From the NCBI GenBank assembly GCA_964458205.1, contig CAYWFJ010000001.1, positions 1-45,963 on the forward strand: a stretch of DNA of 45,963 nt, written 5' to 3'. A program made the position numbers and the translations under genes. This document shows, piece by piece, positions 8,558 through 39,856 of this stretch; within the stretch, counting starts at the first letter, position 1, and the number at the start of each line of letters is the position of its first letter. The DNA is from Candidatus Micrarchaeota archaeon. GTDB lineage: Archaea; Micrarchaeota; Micrarchaeia; Anstonellales; Anstonellaceae. The notes beneath the pieces are model-generated. The model did not search any database. It was given only the letters and a program-made list of their open reading frames with translations, and was not told the DNA's origin.

Positions 8558-8612
8558 CCGCGGTGTTTTCTTGCCAGTGAAAAAGGGGGTCAATAGCGCA
8601 CATGCCGCGGCC

Positions 8613-10235
8613 ATGGCGCGGCTTGATGGCAAACTGCCGTTCTTCTCGCCTAAAAAGCGTGCGCCCCAAAGCGCAGCAAGGCAGGGCGCCGCAAAGGAGG
8701 CGGCGTCCCTTTTCATTGCGAATCCCTCCGCGCAGCTTGAGCGCATAAAGAACGCAATGTGCCGCAAGCACGGCATAACCTATCTCAAGAACTCCGAAAT
8801 ACTCCAATTCGTCCCTCCAACAGATGGGCGCGCCCGCCGCATCCTCCTCAAATCCCCGACGCGCACCCTGTCAGGGGTATCCCCAATCGCGCTCATGCCG
8901 CCGCCCTACCCGTGCGTGGGGCGGTGCGCCTACTGCCCCAAGGGGGTGAACGCCCCGCAGTCCTACACCGGCTTCGAGCCGACCACCATGCGCGCGATAC
9001 AGTGCGGCTATTCCGCGGAAAAGCAGGTCGGGGCGCGCCTGGGCCAGTATTCCCAGCAGGGGCACGGGACCGACAAATGCCACCTCATATTCATGGGCGG
9101 CACCTTCCTTGCCGCGCCAGCCGCTTCCCGCCGCAAATTCGTGAAGGAGGCATTTGACGCGCTCAACGGCTCTGTTTCGCGCACCCTTGCGGAATCGATA
9201 AGCGCGAACGAGACTGCAAGGCACCGCGCAATCGGGGCGACTTTTGAAACCCGCCCGGACTTCGCAGGCGCGCGCGAAGCGGACGAAATGCTCTCACTCG
9301 GGGGGACGCAGGCCGAGCTTGGCGTGCAGTCCCTCTCGGACCAAGTCTACCGAAAAGTCAACCGCGGTCACACGCTTCTTCATGTTGAGCGCGCAACGCG
9401 CATCCTCAAGGACTCGGGCTTCAAGGTCTGCTACCACATGATGCCCGGGCTTTACTCGGGCCCGCGCCAGGATGCAGAGTACTTCCGGCGGCTTTTTTCC
9501 ACCTCGCGCTTCCAGCCGGACATGGTCAAGATTTACCCGGTCCTCGTCCTTCCTGGCACCAGGCTTTACGATGAATGGAAAGCCGGGCGGTTCTCCCCCT
9601 ATGGCACCGAGGAGGCGGCAAAGGCAATCGCCGCTGCTATCAGGCACGTCCCGCCCTATGTCCGAATCCCCCGGATACAGCGGGACATCCCATCCCCCCT
9701 TGTCCTGGCAGGGGTGAAAAGCTCCAACCTGCGCCAAATGGTGGAAGGGCGGCTGCGCGAAGAGGGCGCGGCATGCCGCTGCATACGCTGCCGCGAGGCG
9801 GGAAGCGCAGCCCGCCAGGGCCGAGAATCAAAACAGCTTTCGCTTTCCCTCCTGCGCCAGGACTATTTTGCCTCCGGAGGCAGGGAAACATTCCTTTCAT
9901 TCGAGGATGAGAAGCAGGATATCATTGCGGGCTTCTTGCGCCTGCGAATGCCGGGCAAAAGCCACCGCGCCGAAATCTCGGACGGAACCGGCATCCTCTC
10001 GTCTCTTGTGCGCGAGCTCCATGTTTACGGGCAGGAGGCGTCCATCGGCGAGAAAAGCGAGGGCAAATTCCAGCACAAGGGGCTGGGGCAACGGCTTCTT
10101 CGCGAGGCGGAGCGCATAACGAAAAAAGAATTCGGCATCGGGAAAATCTCCGTCCTCTCAGGCGCAGGCGCTCGCGGCTATTACCGCAAGCTTGGCTACT
10201 CGCTTTGCGGGCCTTACATGCAGAAGAGGGTCTGA
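8613..10235 (+). CDS. elp3: tRNA uridine(34) modification radical SAM/GNAT enzyme Elp3
   Basis: Radical SAM cluster motif CVGRCAYCPKG and C-terminal GNAT motif HKGLGQRLLREAE. Start uncertain: TTG 8571, GTG 8577 or ATG 8613. Confidence 0.85.
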   Translation: MARLDGKLPFFSPKKRAPQSAARQGAAKEAASLFIANPSAQLERIKNAMCRKHGITYLKNSEILQFVPPTDGRARRILLKSPTRTLSGVSPIALMPPPYPCVGRCAYCPKGVNAPQSYTGFEPTTMRAIQCGYSAEKQVGARLGQYSQQGHGTDKCHLIFMGGTFLAAPAASRRKFVKEAFDALNGSVSRTLAESISANETARHRAIGATFETRPDFAGAREADEMLSLGGTQAELGVQSLSDQVYRKVNRGHTLLHVERATRILKDSGFKVCYHMMPGLYSGPRQDAEYFRRLFSTSRFQPDMVKIYPVLVLPGTRLYDEWKAGRFSPYGTEEAAKAIAAAIRHVPPYVRIPRIQRDIPSPLVLAGVKSSNLRQMVEGRLREEGAACRCIRCREAGSAARQGRESKQLSLSLLRQDYFASGGRETFLSFEDEKQDIIAGFLRLRMPGKSHRAEISDGTGILSSLVRELHVYGQEASIGEKSEGKFQHKGLGQRLLREAERITKKEFGIGKISVLSGAGARGYYRKLGYSLCGPYMQKRV

Positions 10236-12475: not shown

Positions 12476-12649
12476 TGCGACCGCCGGGATTTTCAGCCCC
12501 CATTTCTTTTGGGGTCGAAAGACCTTTTCTTCCGGGAAGAAAAGGGATTTCATTTGAACCCGGCTCGCGAGATTTAGGCGGCCAATTCCGCATAAATCGC
12601 CAATCAGCCTTGGCAATCTCGAATCCTAACCAGGCTAGACTACGGTCGC
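12476..12649 (-). tRNA. tRNA-Gly(GCC) with two introns (37 nt at 37/38, plus-strand 12574-12610; 63 nt in the T-loop, about 12489-12551)
   Basis: Hand-folded from the minus strand: GCGACCG TA GTCT AGCCTGGTTA GGAT T CGAGA TTGCCA[37 nt]A TCTCG CGAG CCGGG TTCAAAT[63 nt] CCCGG CGGTCGC A. All four stems pair, giving a 74-nt mature length. The T-loop junction is ambiguous by 1-4 nt because AAAT occurs on both sides. Confidence 0.8.
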
Positions 12650-13777: not shown

Positions 13778-13782
13778 ATTAT

Positions 13783-13855
13783 GCGGCTGTAGTCCAGCCT
13801 GGTAGGATCTGAGCTTCCCAAGCTCGAGACCCGGGTTCAAATCCCGGCAGCCGCA
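13783..13855 (+). tRNA. tRNA-Gly(CCC), intron-less
   Basis: GCGGCTG TA GTCC AGCCTGGTA GGAT C TGAGC TTCCCAA GCTCG AGAC CCGGG TTCAAAT CCCGG CAGCCGC A. Canonical cloverleaf, 73 nt, no encoded CCA. Confidence 0.92.
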
Positions 13856-13951
13856 TCCCATTCATAATCTGGGCATATGTCCGCCGCTGGCATCATCATT
13901 TCCCCCGAAGTTTCGCAACAGTTTATAATGTTCAGTCCTCAATCGTTAAGC

Positions 13952-31633: not shown

Positions 31634-32332
31634 TCAGCCGCAATTCACAACAAGCTTGGCGGTCCCGTTCTGGATTTTGCCGACTGTGTAAGGCGAGTTG
31701 TACTTGAAGGCAATCCTGGCCTGGTACGACCTGCTTCCGCCGCACCAGTTGGGCACTCCCGCTTTCCCAAGCGAAACCGCCCTCTCTTCGCCAGGCGCGA
31801 AGCTTACGTTCCCTATCGTGCTCGCATTCCCGTCAACGCAGAAATTCCATGCCTGGGAATCCACATACACTTCGTCCAATTCCAGCCGCCATCTTTCGTT
31901 GTTTTTCATCACCATGCTCATGTTCATGCTGGTCGCGCCCCCGCACACCGCCCCTGCGCTTGCGGCGGCTTTTGACCCTGAGATAGCGAACGGCTTTGCC
32001 TGCCCTTGCCAATAAAGCTGCGACTCCTGCTGCATGATGTCTCCCGCTACTGATGGCGTGTAGCTGAGAAGCGACACCCCGACAAGCGCCACCACCAGGA
32101 CAGCGCCAAGAAGCATCAGGTATTCGGTGGCACCTTGCCCTCGCAAGGTGCCTGCAGTTGTGCCGCAGCGCAACTCAATCGCGCCCTGCGCACGCAGGGG
32201 GCGAGCAACCGACAAAGTCGATTCAATGGCGCCTTGCCCTCGCAATGCGTCAGGGGCTGCGCGGCAGCGCAGCTCATCTTCTGCCTGCCTTTTTGCCGCA
32301 AAACAGGATTGTTCCATGCACATATGGGCCAA
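31634..32332 (-). CDS. prepilin-like protein with an extended, internally repeated leader
   Basis: Genuine class III signal LRGQG/ATEYLMLLGAVLVVALVGVSLL, preceded in frame by two further R-[GA]-Q-G-A-I-E motifs. Possible starts: TTG 32332, ATG 32323, ATG 32317 or internal TTG 32173. Confidence 0.6.
   Translation of the reverse strand: MAHMCMEQSCFAAKRQAEDELRCRAAPDALRGQGAIESTLSVARPLRAQGAIELRCGTTAGTLRGQGATEYLMLLGAVLVVALVGVSLLSYTPSVAGDIMQQESQLYWQGQAKPFAISGSKAAASAGAVCGGATSMNMSMVMKNNERWRLELDEVYVDSQAWNFCVDGNASTIGNVSFAPGEERAVSLGKAGVPNWCGGSRSYQARIAFKYNSPYTVGKIQNGTAKLVVNCG
32120..32275 (-). repeat. tandem duplication (period 99 bp) of the segment encoding the prepilin leader/cleavage motif
   Basis: The 57-nt copies 32219-32275 and 32120-32176 align (GAGyTGCGCTGCsGC...TTGCGAGGGCAAGGyGCCAyyGAA). 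A third partial copy (CGTGCGCAGGGCGCGATTGAG) lies between them. Confidence 0.7.
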
Positions 32333-32339
32333 ACTCAGG

Positions 32340-32348
32340 TATATAAAA
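32340..32348. promoter_or_regulatory. shared TATA element TATATAAAA
   Basis: It lies 27 nt upstream of the tRNA-Gly(UCC) 5' end (plus strand) and about 17-23 nt upstream of the first ATG codons of the pilin gene (minus strand). Confidence 0.5.
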
Positions 32349-32374: not shown

Positions 32375-32564
32375 GCGGATGTAGTATAACCTGGCTAGTA
32401 TTTTGGCCTTCCATAAAATCAAGCGGTCCTCCGCTTTATTTTGCAGGCAAGTCAAAGGTCCGGGTTCAAACCCTAGGGGGCATGCAGTCTTCAGATGATC
32501 CCCCTGATGGTTCACCCCCAATCAGCATTCATGGGTGAGCTTGGTGAAAATCCCGGCATCCGCA
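32375..32564 (+). tRNA. tRNA-Gly(UCC) with two introns (36 nt at 37/38, 32414-32449; 80 nt in the T-loop, about 32471-32550)
   Basis: Hand-folded: GCGGATG TA GTAT AACCTGGCTA GTAT T TTGGC CTTCCA[36 nt]A GTCAA AGGT CCGGG TTCAAA[80 nt]T CCCGG CATCCGC A. All stems pair, giving a 74-nt mature length. Confidence 0.8.
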
Positions 32565-32766
32565 TTTCATTCTCATTCATGCGTCTGCCGTTTCGGGCTT
32601 CGCTTGAAATCTGTCGCAAGCTGCGCTTGCCCCATCCCGGCTCCGCACGTTTCTTTTTCCCTCAAAATAACCTATATTCTTAAATGGTGTTGCCGCCATA
32701 CCCACCATGCGGAGGCCGGCTCGGCATATTCAGCATGCTAGCCGCAGGGCTCCGGCGGGTGGATTC

Positions 32767-34122
32767 ATGGTCGTGTCTCCTTTGGACGGGCGGTACAAAA
32801 CCCCGATGAACGCGCTTTTCGATGACGCCGCGAAGCTCCGGTCCTGGCTCGATGTCGAGGTGGCACTCGCCCGCGCCCATGCAAGGCTCGGAAGCATCCC
32901 GCCAGAGGCTGCTGACGAGATAGCCGCCGCGGCAGGCAAGGTGGAGATTTCCCGCGTTGAGGAAATAGAGGCGGAGATACACCACGACCTGATGGCGATG
33001 GTGCGCGCGCTTTCCGAGAAATGCCCAAAACACGGCGGGTACGTGCACTACGGCGCAACCTCCTATGACATAGAGGACACCGCGACCGGCATCACACTTT
33101 TTTCCGCGCTCACGCTTCTTGAGAAGCGCCTCATTGAGACAAAATCCATCCTCAAAAGGCTCGCGCTTGAGCACAAGGGCACGGTCTGCATCGCGCGCAC
33201 GCACGGCCAGCACGCGGTCCCGACCACTTACGGGATGAAATTCGCCCTCTGGCACTGCGAAGTGGAGCGCCACCTGGAGCGGATTTCGCAGGCGAAGAAG
33301 GCAATCGCGGTTGGCAAGATGGCTGGCGCGGCAGGCACCATGGCCACATTCGGCGGGAAGGGCACGGAAATCCAGTCGCTCGTGATGGAAAGCCTCGGGC
33401 TTTCGCCGGCGCCGGTCTCAAACCAGGTGGTCCAGCGCGACAGGCACGCGCAGGTGGTTTTCACAGTGGCGCTGATCGCGGCAACTCTTGAGAAAATCGC
33501 AAAGGAGATACGCAACCTCCAGCGCACCGAGATAATGGAGGTGGCTGAGCCGTTTTCCGCGAAGCAGGTCGGCTCATCGACGATGCCTCAGAAGCGGAAC
33601 CCGCACAAGTGCGAGCGCATCTGCTCGCTTGCGCGCCGCGTGCGGGGAAACGTCGCAGTGGCGCTTGAGAACATCCCGCTTGAGCACGAGCGCGACCTCA
33701 CCAATTCCGCGAACGAGCGCTTCATCTTCCCGGAAAGCTTCATACTTGCAGACTACATGCTCTCCGAAATGAACAAGGTCCTCTCAGGGTTGCATTTTTT
33801 CCCTGAAAACATCAGGCGGAACCTGGAGCTTTCAGGGGGGCTCATACTTGCCGAAAGGGTGATGATTGCGCTCACCGAAAAGGGGATGGGCAGGCAGGAG
33901 GCGCACGAGCTTCTTCGCAACTGCAGCATGGAGGCTTTCAATGGCAAAAAGCCGCTCCTTTCCGTCCTCCTGTCAAACAAAGCGGTAATAAGGCTTCTCC
34001 CCAAAACCGAGCTTGAGCGGCTTTTCGACTATTCCACATACATAGGCGAGGCGCAGGGGATAGTCGGGCGCGCAATCCAGGGCGGGGGCAAGCCTGCTTC
34101 CGCAAAGCCGCGCGGAAAATAG
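32767..34122 (+). CDS. purB: adenylosuccinate lyase
   Basis: SPLDGRY N-terminus and signature SSTMPQKRNP. ATG 32767; the alternative ATG 32707 sits about 27 nt after a TATA-like element and would give a leaderless mRNA. Confidence 0.88.
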   Translation: MVVSPLDGRYKTPMNALFDDAAKLRSWLDVEVALARAHARLGSIPPEAADEIAAAAGKVEISRVEEIEAEIHHDLMAMVRALSEKCPKHGGYVHYGATSYDIEDTATGITLFSALTLLEKRLIETKSILKRLALEHKGTVCIARTHGQHAVPTTYGMKFALWHCEVERHLERISQAKKAIAVGKMAGAAGTMATFGGKGTEIQSLVMESLGLSPAPVSNQVVQRDRHAQVVFTVALIAATLEKIAKEIRNLQRTEIMEVAEPFSAKQVGSSTMPQKRNPHKCERICSLARRVRGNVAVALENIPLEHERDLTNSANERFIFPESFILADYMLSEMNKVLSGLHFFPENIRRNLELSGGLILAERVMIALTEKGMGRQEAHELLRNCSMEAFNGKKPLLSVLLSNKAVIRLLPKTELERLFDYSTYIGEAQGIVGRAIQGGGKPASAKPRGK

Positions 34123-39421: not shown

Positions 39422-39856
39422 ATGCACAAATGCGCTCGCTGCGGCAGGGAAATAGAGAAGCTTGAGGAAGTGAATACCGGATGCCCGTGCGGCTCCAAAA
39501 TCTTCGTCTTTGACAGGGGGGTGGCCGAAGCCGCAAAGCCGGCTTGCGCGGTGCCTCCAGCCCAGGCGCGCCCGCTCGTGCAAGAGGGGGCGGCGGACGG
39601 GAAAAAGGAGGCCGGCCGAGCGCCAGACTCCTATTTTGCCCGCACCACATTCACCACGGAAGACGTTGAGAACATAAAAATCGTGTCTGAAGGCGTATTT
39701 TTGGTGGACGTGAACGCGCTTTCGAAAAGCCCGGTCGTCCTAAAGGACGATGACGGGGTCTATTTCGTGAAAATTCCATTTGAGCAGGGCAGCCACTTCT
39801 CTGCGCTTGACGAGCCGAACGGGAAATCAGCGGCGGAAAAGGAAAAGAAGGCGTAA
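39422..39856 (+). CDS. Zn-ribbon protein
   Basis: N-terminal CARCG-x14-CPCG ribbon. Starts 15 nt after the GTPase stop. The C-terminal domain is not recognisable. Confidence 0.6.
   Translation: MHKCARCGREIEKLEEVNTGCPCGSKIFVFDRGVAEAAKPACAVPPAQARPLVQEGAADGKKEAGRAPDSYFARTTFTTEDVENIKIVSEGVFLVDVNALSKSPVVLKDDDGVYFVKIPFEQGSHFSALDEPNGKSAAEKEKKA

Follow-up and report, generated by a model that had tools for sequence, protein, structure and literature searches.

Does a locus that standard tRNA finders pass over encode a working glycine tRNA, and where do the sequences that interrupt it come from? We studied both questions for positions 32375-32564 (forward strand) of a 45,963-nt stretch of DNA from a Candidatus Micrarchaeota archaeon (contig CAYWFJ010000001.1, assembly GCA_964458205.1), referred to as a whole as the window. 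The original prediction had described this locus as a tRNA-Gly(UCC) gene with a canonical intron and a second intron in the T-loop, and the spliced tRNA call, the orthologs and the geometry of the splice motifs all bear it out. We consider it very probable that 32375-32564 is a functional two-intron tRNA-Gly(UCC) gene that is processed through bulge-helix-bulge (BHB) splicing. Directly observed are the positions where exons and introns meet, the cloverleaf, the geometry of the BHB motifs and the conservation among relatives. The 80-nt intron in the T-loop did not arise inside this gene; the 49 nt at its start copy a small dispersed element. Judged by sequence patterns, for splicing as well as for mobility, the copies of this element suggest a small mobile DNA that would seed archaeal tRNA introns.

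Gene architecture and mature tRNA

The locus reads GCGGATGTAGTATAACCTGGCTAGTATTTTGGCCTTCCA, 36 nt, AGTCAAAGGTCCGGGTTCAAA, 80 nt and TCCCGGCATCCGCA. Exon 1 (32375..32413, 39 nt) contains the 5' strand of the acceptor stem (GCGGATG), the D-arm, the 5' strand of the anticodon stem (TTGGC) and the anticodon loop through A37, with the anticodon TCC at 32410-32412. Intron 1 (32414..32449, 36 nt) occupies the canonical site 37/38, has an internal hairpin at 32415-32442 and is bounded by a relaxed BHB motif. Exon 2 (32450..32470, 21 nt) continues with A38, the 3' strand of the anticodon stem (GTCAA), the variable loop AGGT, the 5' strand of the T-stem (CCGGG) and the T-loop TTCAAA through position 59. 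It is followed by intron 2 (32471..32550, 80 nt), which lies at the non-canonical T-loop site 59/60 and has a strict hBHBh' motif. Exon 3 (32551..32564, 14 nt) supplies T60, the 3' strand of the T-stem (CCCGG), the 3' strand of the acceptor stem (CATCCGC) and the discriminator A73. All of these features are on the forward strand.

ARAGORN called the spliced 74-nt product as tRNA-Gly(tcc), with an acceptor stem of 7 bp, a D-stem of 4 bp and anticodon and T-stems of 5 bp each. The removal of 36 nt after position 37 and of 80 nt from the T-loop thus restores all four stems, as had been proposed, and the coordinates agree with an intron share of 116 of the 190 nt (61%). The helices that had been read within the introns were all recovered in the predicted folds: the intron 1 hairpin AAAAT-C-AAGCGG/CCGCTT-T-ATTTT at 32415-32442, and in intron 2 the helices AGGGGG/CCCCCT (32475-80 with 32500-05) and TCACCC/GGGTGA (32512-17 with 32533-38). 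The pairs G1:C72, C2:G71 and G3:C70 together with A73 fit the archaeal tRNA-Gly identity elements. CCA is not encoded at the 3' end and a pyrimidine-rich trailer, TTTCATTCTCATTC, comes next. The A/T-rich box TATATAAAA (32340..32348, forward strand), read from the sequence 27-35 nt upstream of the mature 5' end, is likely to be the archaeal TATA-type promoter of the gene. A box of this kind is found at a similar upstream distance in most orthologs.

When the locus was scanned unspliced, neither ARAGORN (with or without its intron option) nor Rfam at the gathering threshold called a tRNA. The Rfam matches that appeared at E ≤ 10 (RAGATH-17, mir-357, snR49 and mir-188) were at chance level, all with E ≥ 0.4 and far below gathering, and were rejected.

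Orthologs and the position of the anticodon

The gene directly downstream (32707-34122) looks by eye like adenylosuccinate lyase (PurB). For the comparison we used the purB-anchored loci of the 80 best PurB relatives among species-representative genomes. Almost all of these relatives are metagenome-assembled genomes of Candidatus Micrarchaeota or Micrarchaeia, with PurB identities of 60-76%. An orthologous tRNA-Gly(UCC) gene, in which exon 1 has 0-2 substitutions, was present in 15 of the 80 loci and mostly lies upstream of purB. Over eight distinct sequences the three exon blocks showed a mean column identity of 97%, and the exons are identical to those of the window in five other genomes. 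All 168 cloverleaf pair cells in the eight sequences were standard pairs, compared to only 33-43% when the partners were slid, and the pair 6:67 varies between U-A, U-G and C-G across the orthologs.

The segments between the exon blocks differ completely among the orthologs. Including the window's own, all 16 syntenic genes contain at least one intron. The insert at 37/38 measures 0 nt in three loci (L003, L014, L068), 20-23 nt in another three (L013, L015, L018), 36 nt in the window and 71-126 nt in the remaining orthologs. At 59/60 there is no insert in five loci (L004, L009, L013, L015, L018); the others have 29, 44, 51 or 71-76 nt, with 80 nt in the window and 225 nt in L014. The three loci that lack the first intron run uninterrupted across its site as CTTCCAAGTCAA, and the five that lack the second run across its site as GGGTTCAAATCCCGG.

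These intron-less orthologs fix both junctions and the anticodon, and thereby decide against a different register of the first intron. When intron 2 alone is removed, ARAGORN reports a tRNA-Ala(UGC), in which the 36 nt would follow position 33/34 and the anticodon would be TGC. This reading is refuted by the three loci without intron 1, which read CTTCCAA and hence have the anticodon UCC. Furthermore, most of the orthologous introns end in GAAGAA, which is incompatible with the alanine register, the outer helix of the BHB motif is intact at 37/38 only, and the Rfam tRNA model puts UCC in the anticodon loop. The acceptor stem also has G3:C70 in place of the alanine identity pair G3:U70. We regard the probability of a tRNA-Ala(UGC) as practically nil.

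We applied the Rfam tRNA model to L013, L015 and L018, whose exons are identical to those of the window and which are interrupted by a short 37/38 intron only. They scored 52 bits against a gathering threshold of 29, and the model placed the arms where the original prediction had drawn them.

In seven loci (L003, L009, L013, L015, L020, L134, L141) we also observed a minihelix-like element of ∼37-40 nt that lies ∼8-12 nt upstream of the tRNA-Gly(UCC) gene and is not present in the window. It starts with the tRNA's own 5' strand, GCGGATG, and ends with CCGCA. The sequence of its hairpin stem varies by locus and the pairing is kept. This element may be what is left of a duplication, or else a structured leader.

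Splice motifs and predicted processing

Three candidate registers for intron 1 and four for intron 2 yield the same mature sequence. We chose 37/38 and 59/60 because only in these registers does the outer helix of the BHB motif, formed by the anticodon stem or the T-stem, stay intact. For intron 2 the central helix pairs TTCA (32465-68) with TGAA (32545-48), 4/4 Watson-Crick, and the outer helix pairs the T-stem strands 32460-64 and 32552-56, 5/5 Watson-Crick. The bulges are AA|C and AA|T (AAC and AAT), and the inner helix consists of CC/GG plus AG/CT. Among the orthologs the central helix of the 59/60 motif was perfect in six cases and slightly relaxed in four, and the 5/5 outer helix recurs in most of those with this intron. 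For intron 1 both the outer anticodon stem and the 3' bulge CA|A are as they should be. Nine orthologs have the complete central helix CTTC/GAAG (4/4) at 37/38, compared to 3/4 in the window. With the cloverleaf enforced, the central helix costs 1.5 kcal/mol for intron 2 and 2.5 kcal/mol for intron 1 relative to the best fold.

A precursor of ∼190 nt would probably be transcribed from the TATA-like box ∼30 nt upstream, and its fold would be that of the tRNA cloverleaf plus two additional domains. Cleavage in the four bulges would fall to the archaeal splicing endonuclease, for which we expect the broad-specificity epsilon2 type known from Micrarchaeum. The three exons would next be ligated into the 74-nt tRNA by an RtcB-type ligase, which would also circularise the introns, and CCA would be added to the tRNA after ligation.

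A related system has been described in ARMAN-2 (Candidatus Micrarchaeum acidiphilum), which has multi-intron tRNA genes and an epsilon2 endonuclease (Fujishima et al. 2011, PMC3239211; Hirata et al. 2012, PMC3488258; structure from 2025, PMC12397907). Its intron sites include 59/60, with one case of two introns in a single T-loop, and its three-unit epsilon2 enzyme cleaves both 37/38 strict-BHB and 59/60 relaxed-BHB introns in vitro (PMC3239211). Relaxed motifs are cleaved by epsilon2 and by (alpha-beta)2 enzymes (PMC3239211), and reviews list ARMAN-1 and ARMAN-2 among the lineages with multi-intron tRNAs (PMC4033280). As this lineage is documented to have tRNAs with several introns, 59/60 introns among them, and an endonuclease that cleaves such introns, the two-intron architecture is ordinary for Micrarchaeota. 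The two systems belong to the same phylum-level lineage and share introns at 37/38 and 59/60, more than one intron per gene and the coexistence of strict and relaxed BHB motifs. They differ in that the 59/60 intron tested in ARMAN-2 has 13 nt and a relaxed hBH motif, whereas the one studied here has 80 nt, a strict hBHBh' motif and a dispersed element as its basis. The window also comes from another, neutral-environment clade of Micrarchaeota with ∼57% GC.

Several observations count against the locus being a spliced, functional gene. The central helix of intron 1 (C32-G, U33.G, U34-A, C35xC) contains one G.U pair and one C/C mismatch, so that its BHB motif is relaxed. Neither central helix forms in the unconstrained minimum-energy fold, and a fold in which neither the cloverleaf nor the central helices are enforced is 9 kcal/mol more stable. 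The argument from the exons rests on conservation and not on covariation, because the variation is too sparse for covariation to reach statistical significance. A Pfam search of 39 of the 41 long open reading frames (ORFs) of the window found no tRNA-intron endonuclease domain. Finally, we infer the transcription, cleavage and ligation of the precursor from the motif and from the lineage.

A dispersed element in the second intron

The first 49 nt of intron 2 (32471..32519, forward strand) form a sharply bounded element, which in general reads CCCTAGGGGGCA-variable loop-ATCCCCCTGAKGGYTCACCCCC and in the window CCCTAGGGGGCA-17-nt variable loop-ATCCCCCTGATGGTTCACCCCC. The first link came from weak BLAST matches between intron 2 of the window and the T-loop introns of L014 and of L017, an ortholog at a contig edge. 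BLAST found no other copy of intron 1 in the window and the 80 related loci. For a scan of metagenomes we used as pattern the 19-mer CCCCCTGAKGGYTCACCCC, which was common to the early matches, and 64 contigs were returned. In 47 of the 64, CCCTAGGGGGCA was found ∼17 nt upstream of the 19-mer and was almost invariant, though it lies outside the search pattern. The sequences collected contain 44 distinct copies of the 49-nt core.

From 41 distinct cores we built a covariance model (R1). It separated 47 full-copy loci, which scored at least 49.6 bits, from chance matches in coding DNA, which reached at most 25 bits. The core of the window (32471-32519) scored 64.5 bits (E = 9e-15). In 690 kb of unselected Micrarchaeota DNA (the window and the 80 purB loci) the model matched only the T-loop introns of tRNA-Gly(UCC) in the window, L014 and L017, with two tandem copies in L014. 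Several of the element-bearing contigs are syntenic relatives of the window, such as L141 (PurB 72% and Lrp 63% identity), L130 (PurB 76%) and L111, where the kinase beside tRNA-Gly(GCC) has 57% identity.

Two of the matched introns have unusual forms. In L014 (3636-3934) ∼70 nt of the element core are duplicated in tandem within the T-loop intron of 225 nt. The ortholog in L017 (1-236) is cut at the contig edge and has a T-loop intron of more than 220 nt with the same core.

In the fold of the core, a 7-bp stem (UAGGGGG/CCCCCUG) closes a loop of ∼20 nt. The next segment, GGUUCACCCC, supplies the 5' strand for a second hairpin, in which the opposite strand is variable yet complementary. Described as DNA, the core contains the internal inverted repeat CCCTAGGGGG/CCCCCTGAGGG, then TCACCCCC. 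In the window hairpin 1 (32474-32506) lies inside the core, and hairpin 2 (32509-32541) uses the 3' part of the core as its 5' strand. In the 41 distinct copies the flanks of the core are invariant and the centre varies, with no majority base in the loop. The matches of this variable centre to nearby sequence and its self-complementarity were no better than those of shuffled sequences. The stem is invariant, which leaves no room for covariation. The 5' boundary of the core is equally sharp in all contexts, and viral contigs returned zero matches with two patterns.

Invariant flanks around a variable centre suggest selection on something, and one candidate is a functional small RNA encoded by the intron. 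It could be a C/D-box guide, as in the tRNA-Trp intron of Haloferax, or a stable circular RNA that has a role of its own. Excised archaeal tRNA introns take the form of circles, and the core contains the strings CUGA and UGAUGG. The conserved C box RUGAUGA was not seen in it, however, and a G variant, CUGAGGG, destroys the C'-like box and loses UGAUGG. Beyond the chance-level matches mentioned above, the search at E ≤ 10 assigned the locus to no Rfam family. The behaviour of the centre relative to shuffles and the fact that the element also works in antisense (see below) argue against a guide or a stable circle as well, and we judge a functional small RNA improbable.

Contexts of the element copies

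We determined the contexts of the copies by a tRNA-independent scan with a BHB rule and by parsing the flanks by hand. Brute-force splicing followed by ARAGORN was set aside for the element copies, as it is too permissive and gives wrong anticodons where a second intron is present.

The element occurs in the introns of nine tRNA species: Gly(UCC), Gly(GCC), Lys(UUU), Glu(UUC), Ala(CGC), Cys(GCA), Arg(UCU), Arg(CCU) and Gln(CUG). In five of them the intron is at 59/60 and in four at 37/38. Perfect motifs with 4+5 Watson-Crick pairs were found for the 59/60 copies of Gly(UCC) in the window, L014, L130, L134 and L141, and likewise in Gly(GCC) (L111), Lys(UUU) (L138), Glu(UUC) (L143) and Ala(CGC) (L133). 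The last 8 nt of the 59/60 copies are GGTGAAAA, an adaptor that pairs with TTCA of the T-loop; the exception is L133, which ends in GGTGGAAA. All T-loop copies lie between the conserved GGTTCAAA and TCCC, and the introns of L134 (Gly) and L138 (Lys) are identical at 68 of 71 positions. The 37/38 copies have a perfect BHB motif in tRNA-Cys(GCA) (L131, L132, L136) and a near-perfect one in tRNA-Arg(UCU) (L087, L107, L119). In tRNA-Arg(CCU) (L083, L123) the copies lie within an intervening sequence of 102-105 nt, for which the strict BHB rule gave no motif.

In one locus (L081) a tRNA-Gln(CUG) gene is encoded on the strand opposite the element, and its 80-nt intron at 37/38 contains the element in antisense. 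The BHB motif of this tRNA is good (CTCT/GGAG, with the outer helix CGAGG/CCTCG), and ARAGORN calls tRNA-Gln after the removal of the 37/38 intron and of an insertion in the D-arm. This gene lies in the first ∼420 nt of the locus and has at least two insertions, the one in the D-arm region measuring ∼26-30 nt.

No direct repeats were present around the intron copies. Nine non-intron copies, by contrast, lie between direct repeats of 12-26 nt, with scores of 12-24 compared to a shuffle maximum of ∼10. The upstream repeat stops 0-2 nt before the core and the downstream repeat starts 1-45 nt after it. No convincing BHB motif was found at any register within the flanking repeats of the non-intron copies. 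In L086, L095, L097 and L137 the flanking repeat is the 5' end of the next tRNA, and in L101 it consists of the 3' end of a tRNA encoded on the opposite strand. Further copies directly follow the 3' end of a tRNA (L089, L091, L110) or separate a TATA-like box from the start codon ATG of a small, Cys-rich ORF that is zinc-ribbon-like (L102, L127, L128, L084). In L084 the element is flanked by an imperfect repeat of 25 nt that includes the start codon.

As the 80-nt insert copies an element that also inserts at non-intron sites, and as standard tRNA finders do not call the locus, it could be argued that the gene is dead: the insertion into the T-loop would have disrupted an intact or single-intron tRNA-Gly(UCC), with another copy elsewhere in the genome supplying the function. 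The exons show no decay, however, and are the same as in five other genomes. The BHB motif is a perfect 3-4-3, its adaptor GGTGAAAA is common to all T-loop copies except the one ending in GGTGGAAA, and the presence of at least one intron in all 16 syntenic genes fits routine splicing. ARAGORN and Rfam scans found no second tRNA-Gly(UCC) within the 46-kb window, and 59/60 introns are cleaved in vitro by the enzyme of this lineage (PMC3239211). We hold a dead gene to be highly improbable.

Origin and spread of the element

The repeat-flanked non-intron copies and the occurrence of both orientations point to an insertion of DNA that survives where processing removes the insert. We put the probability that the 80-nt intron is a domesticated copy of a mobile DNA element of ∼50 nt, active in Micrarchaeota, at about one half. 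Insertions of the element would fall within or close to tRNA genes, in both orientations, and would duplicate 12-26 nt of the target. Copies would persist where RNA processing removes them, i.e. as BHB introns or in tRNA leaders and trailers. BHB introns would arise from the copies that gain, on their 3' side, a short adaptor able to pair with the exon upstream of them (GGTGAAAA in the case of the T-loop, GAAGxx in that of the anticodon loop), and introns formed in this way could then spread among tRNA genes.

The copies may instead have spread without a DNA transposon-like element, either at the RNA level or by gene conversion between the conserved T-arms and anticodon arms. Possible routes would be reverse splicing of circular introns followed by reverse transcription, or recombination at short homologies, in which case the repeat-flanked copies would be by-products of recombination. 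An adaptor that is shared by the T-loop copies (GGTGAAAA, with GGTGGAAA in L133) and their fixed placement between GGTTCAAA and TCCC are as expected for homology-guided or BHB-guided transfer. The near identity of the Gly and Lys introns (68/71) agrees with such a transfer, repeats of 12-26 nt are unlike the fixed stagger of a transposase, and no transposase partner was found among the collected loci or viral contigs. An RNA-level route would keep the orientation, however, and an antisense copy serves as the 37/38 intron of tRNA-Gln. Leaders and trailers of tRNAs, the upstream region of a protein-coding gene and the strand opposite a tRNA also hold copies without a BHB motif, and the core has the same sharp 5' boundary in every context. 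We consider RNA-level or gene-conversion spread in place of a DNA element possible but doubtful.

Several points weigh against the mobile DNA element. The search pattern fixed 19 nt of the 3' flank, and the conservation of that flank therefore follows in part from the search. As the stem of the core is invariant, a conserved RNA structure is not separable from conservation of the DNA sequence. The flanking repeats vary in length, which is atypical of a transposase, and no paired copies enclosing a larger unit, such as an autonomous partner, were found among the collected loci. Part of the spread could also be due to gene conversion, or to transfer at the RNA level, between conserved T-arms.

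We compared the element to three known systems. The first is the Thermoproteales, for which reviews summarise work from 2010 (Molecular Biology and Evolution) that found very similar introns in different isoacceptor tRNAs, both at canonical sites and at non-canonical ones (PMC4090602, PMC4033280). According to the same summaries this implies recent intron gain by movement, with broad-specificity endonucleases, and the mechanism of the transposition is called unknown in the reviews, one of which dates from 2014 (PMC4090602, PMC4033280). Both hallmarks were found here, namely similar introns in tRNAs with different anticodons and the use of canonical as well as non-canonical positions. The differences are that our organism belongs to DPANN and not to the Crenarchaeota, that the endonuclease is expected to be of another type, and that we observed repeat-flanked non-intron copies and one antisense copy, neither of which the reviews mention in their accounts of these introns (PMC4090602, PMC4033280). 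As far as these accounts go, the element family seems to represent, in another phylum, the phenomenon described there.

The second system is a separate model from 2012, in which an intron is gained through the integration of a 1.9-kb recombinase-bearing element, a process resembling pNOB8-type integration (PMC3293823). The two cases share direct repeats of tRNA gene ends around the inserted DNA and a tie between mobile DNA and a new tRNA intron. In that model the insert has 1.9 kb and a recombinase-like ORF, whereas the inserts described here have 50-110 nt, are non-coding and share a 49-nt core. The third comparison is with the miniature inverted-repeat transposable elements (MITEs) known from archaea and bacteria. 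Our element resembles them in being small, non-coding and sharply bounded, with many dispersed copies, an imperfect inverted repeat hairpin, direct repeats of the target around many copies and both orientations. It differs in that the repeats are long and vary from 12 to 26 nt, so that the short target-site duplications of fixed length typical of MITEs are missing, and in that the inverted repeat is internal and not terminal. Moreover, many copies are predicted to have been exapted as spliceable BHB introns, and the collected loci contained no autonomous partner.

How archaeal tRNAs acquire introns has been an open question since related introns were seen across Thermoproteales tRNAs. Here one element is seen in several states: as an intron at two positions, in both orientations and as a plain repeat-flanked insertion. 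If this holds in complete genomes, it would link a small mobile DNA to the birth of introns and offer a concrete mechanism for intron gain in archaeal tRNAs, for which naturally filled and empty sites can be compared.

Other glycine tRNA genes and neighbouring genes

The window contains two further glycine tRNA genes. A tRNA-Gly(GCC) gene (12476-12649, reverse strand) has introns of 37 nt at 37/38 and of 63 nt at 59/60, and its spliced 74-mer is called as tRNA-Gly(gcc) by ARAGORN. The likeness of architecture that had been noted between the GCC and UCC genes holds, as the intron positions agree in both. The central helix of the GCC gene is weak at 37/38 (2/4) and complete at 59/60 (TTCA/TGAA, 4/4). 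The intron sequences of the two genes are unrelated. In the relative L111 the 59/60 site of tRNA-Gly(GCC) holds the CCCTAGGGGG element, and the unrelated 63-nt intron of the window is not there. The tRNA-Gly(CCC) gene (13782-13858, forward strand) is intron-less and was the sole tRNA of the window called by ARAGORN and Rfam in the unspliced scans.

All three isoacceptor genes (CCC, GCC and UCC) lie within 20 kb, and CCC alone is intron-free and detected by standard tools. As these tools miss the UCC and GCC genes, the genome would seem to lack two of its three glycine tRNAs; the tRNA-Gly(UCC) gene itself matters mainly for annotation.

The G+C content of the window is 56.7%. Neighbouring genes with Pfam support are of common housekeeping types and include an M20 peptidase, an Lrp/AsnC regulator, a Mur-ligase-like protein, pyruvate:ferredoxin oxidoreductase, glutamate dehydrogenase and an Elp3-like radical-SAM protein, among others. 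By eye, the genes that follow purB resemble serine hydroxymethyltransferase and FolD. The Elp3-like ORF (8571-10235, forward strand) combines the radical-SAM domain with a GNAT domain and is a candidate tRNA wobble-uridine modification enzyme. The ORF at 39422-39856 (forward strand) is a homolog of the origin-associated protein OapC, which may mean that a replication origin is nearby. The ORF at 31634-32332 (reverse strand) is without a Pfam match. Its N-terminal region has the motif R(G/A)QGA(I/T)E three times, and the hydrophobic stretch GQGATEYLMLLGAVLVVALVGVSLL after the last repeat resembles by eye an archaeal class III (pilin-type) signal peptide.

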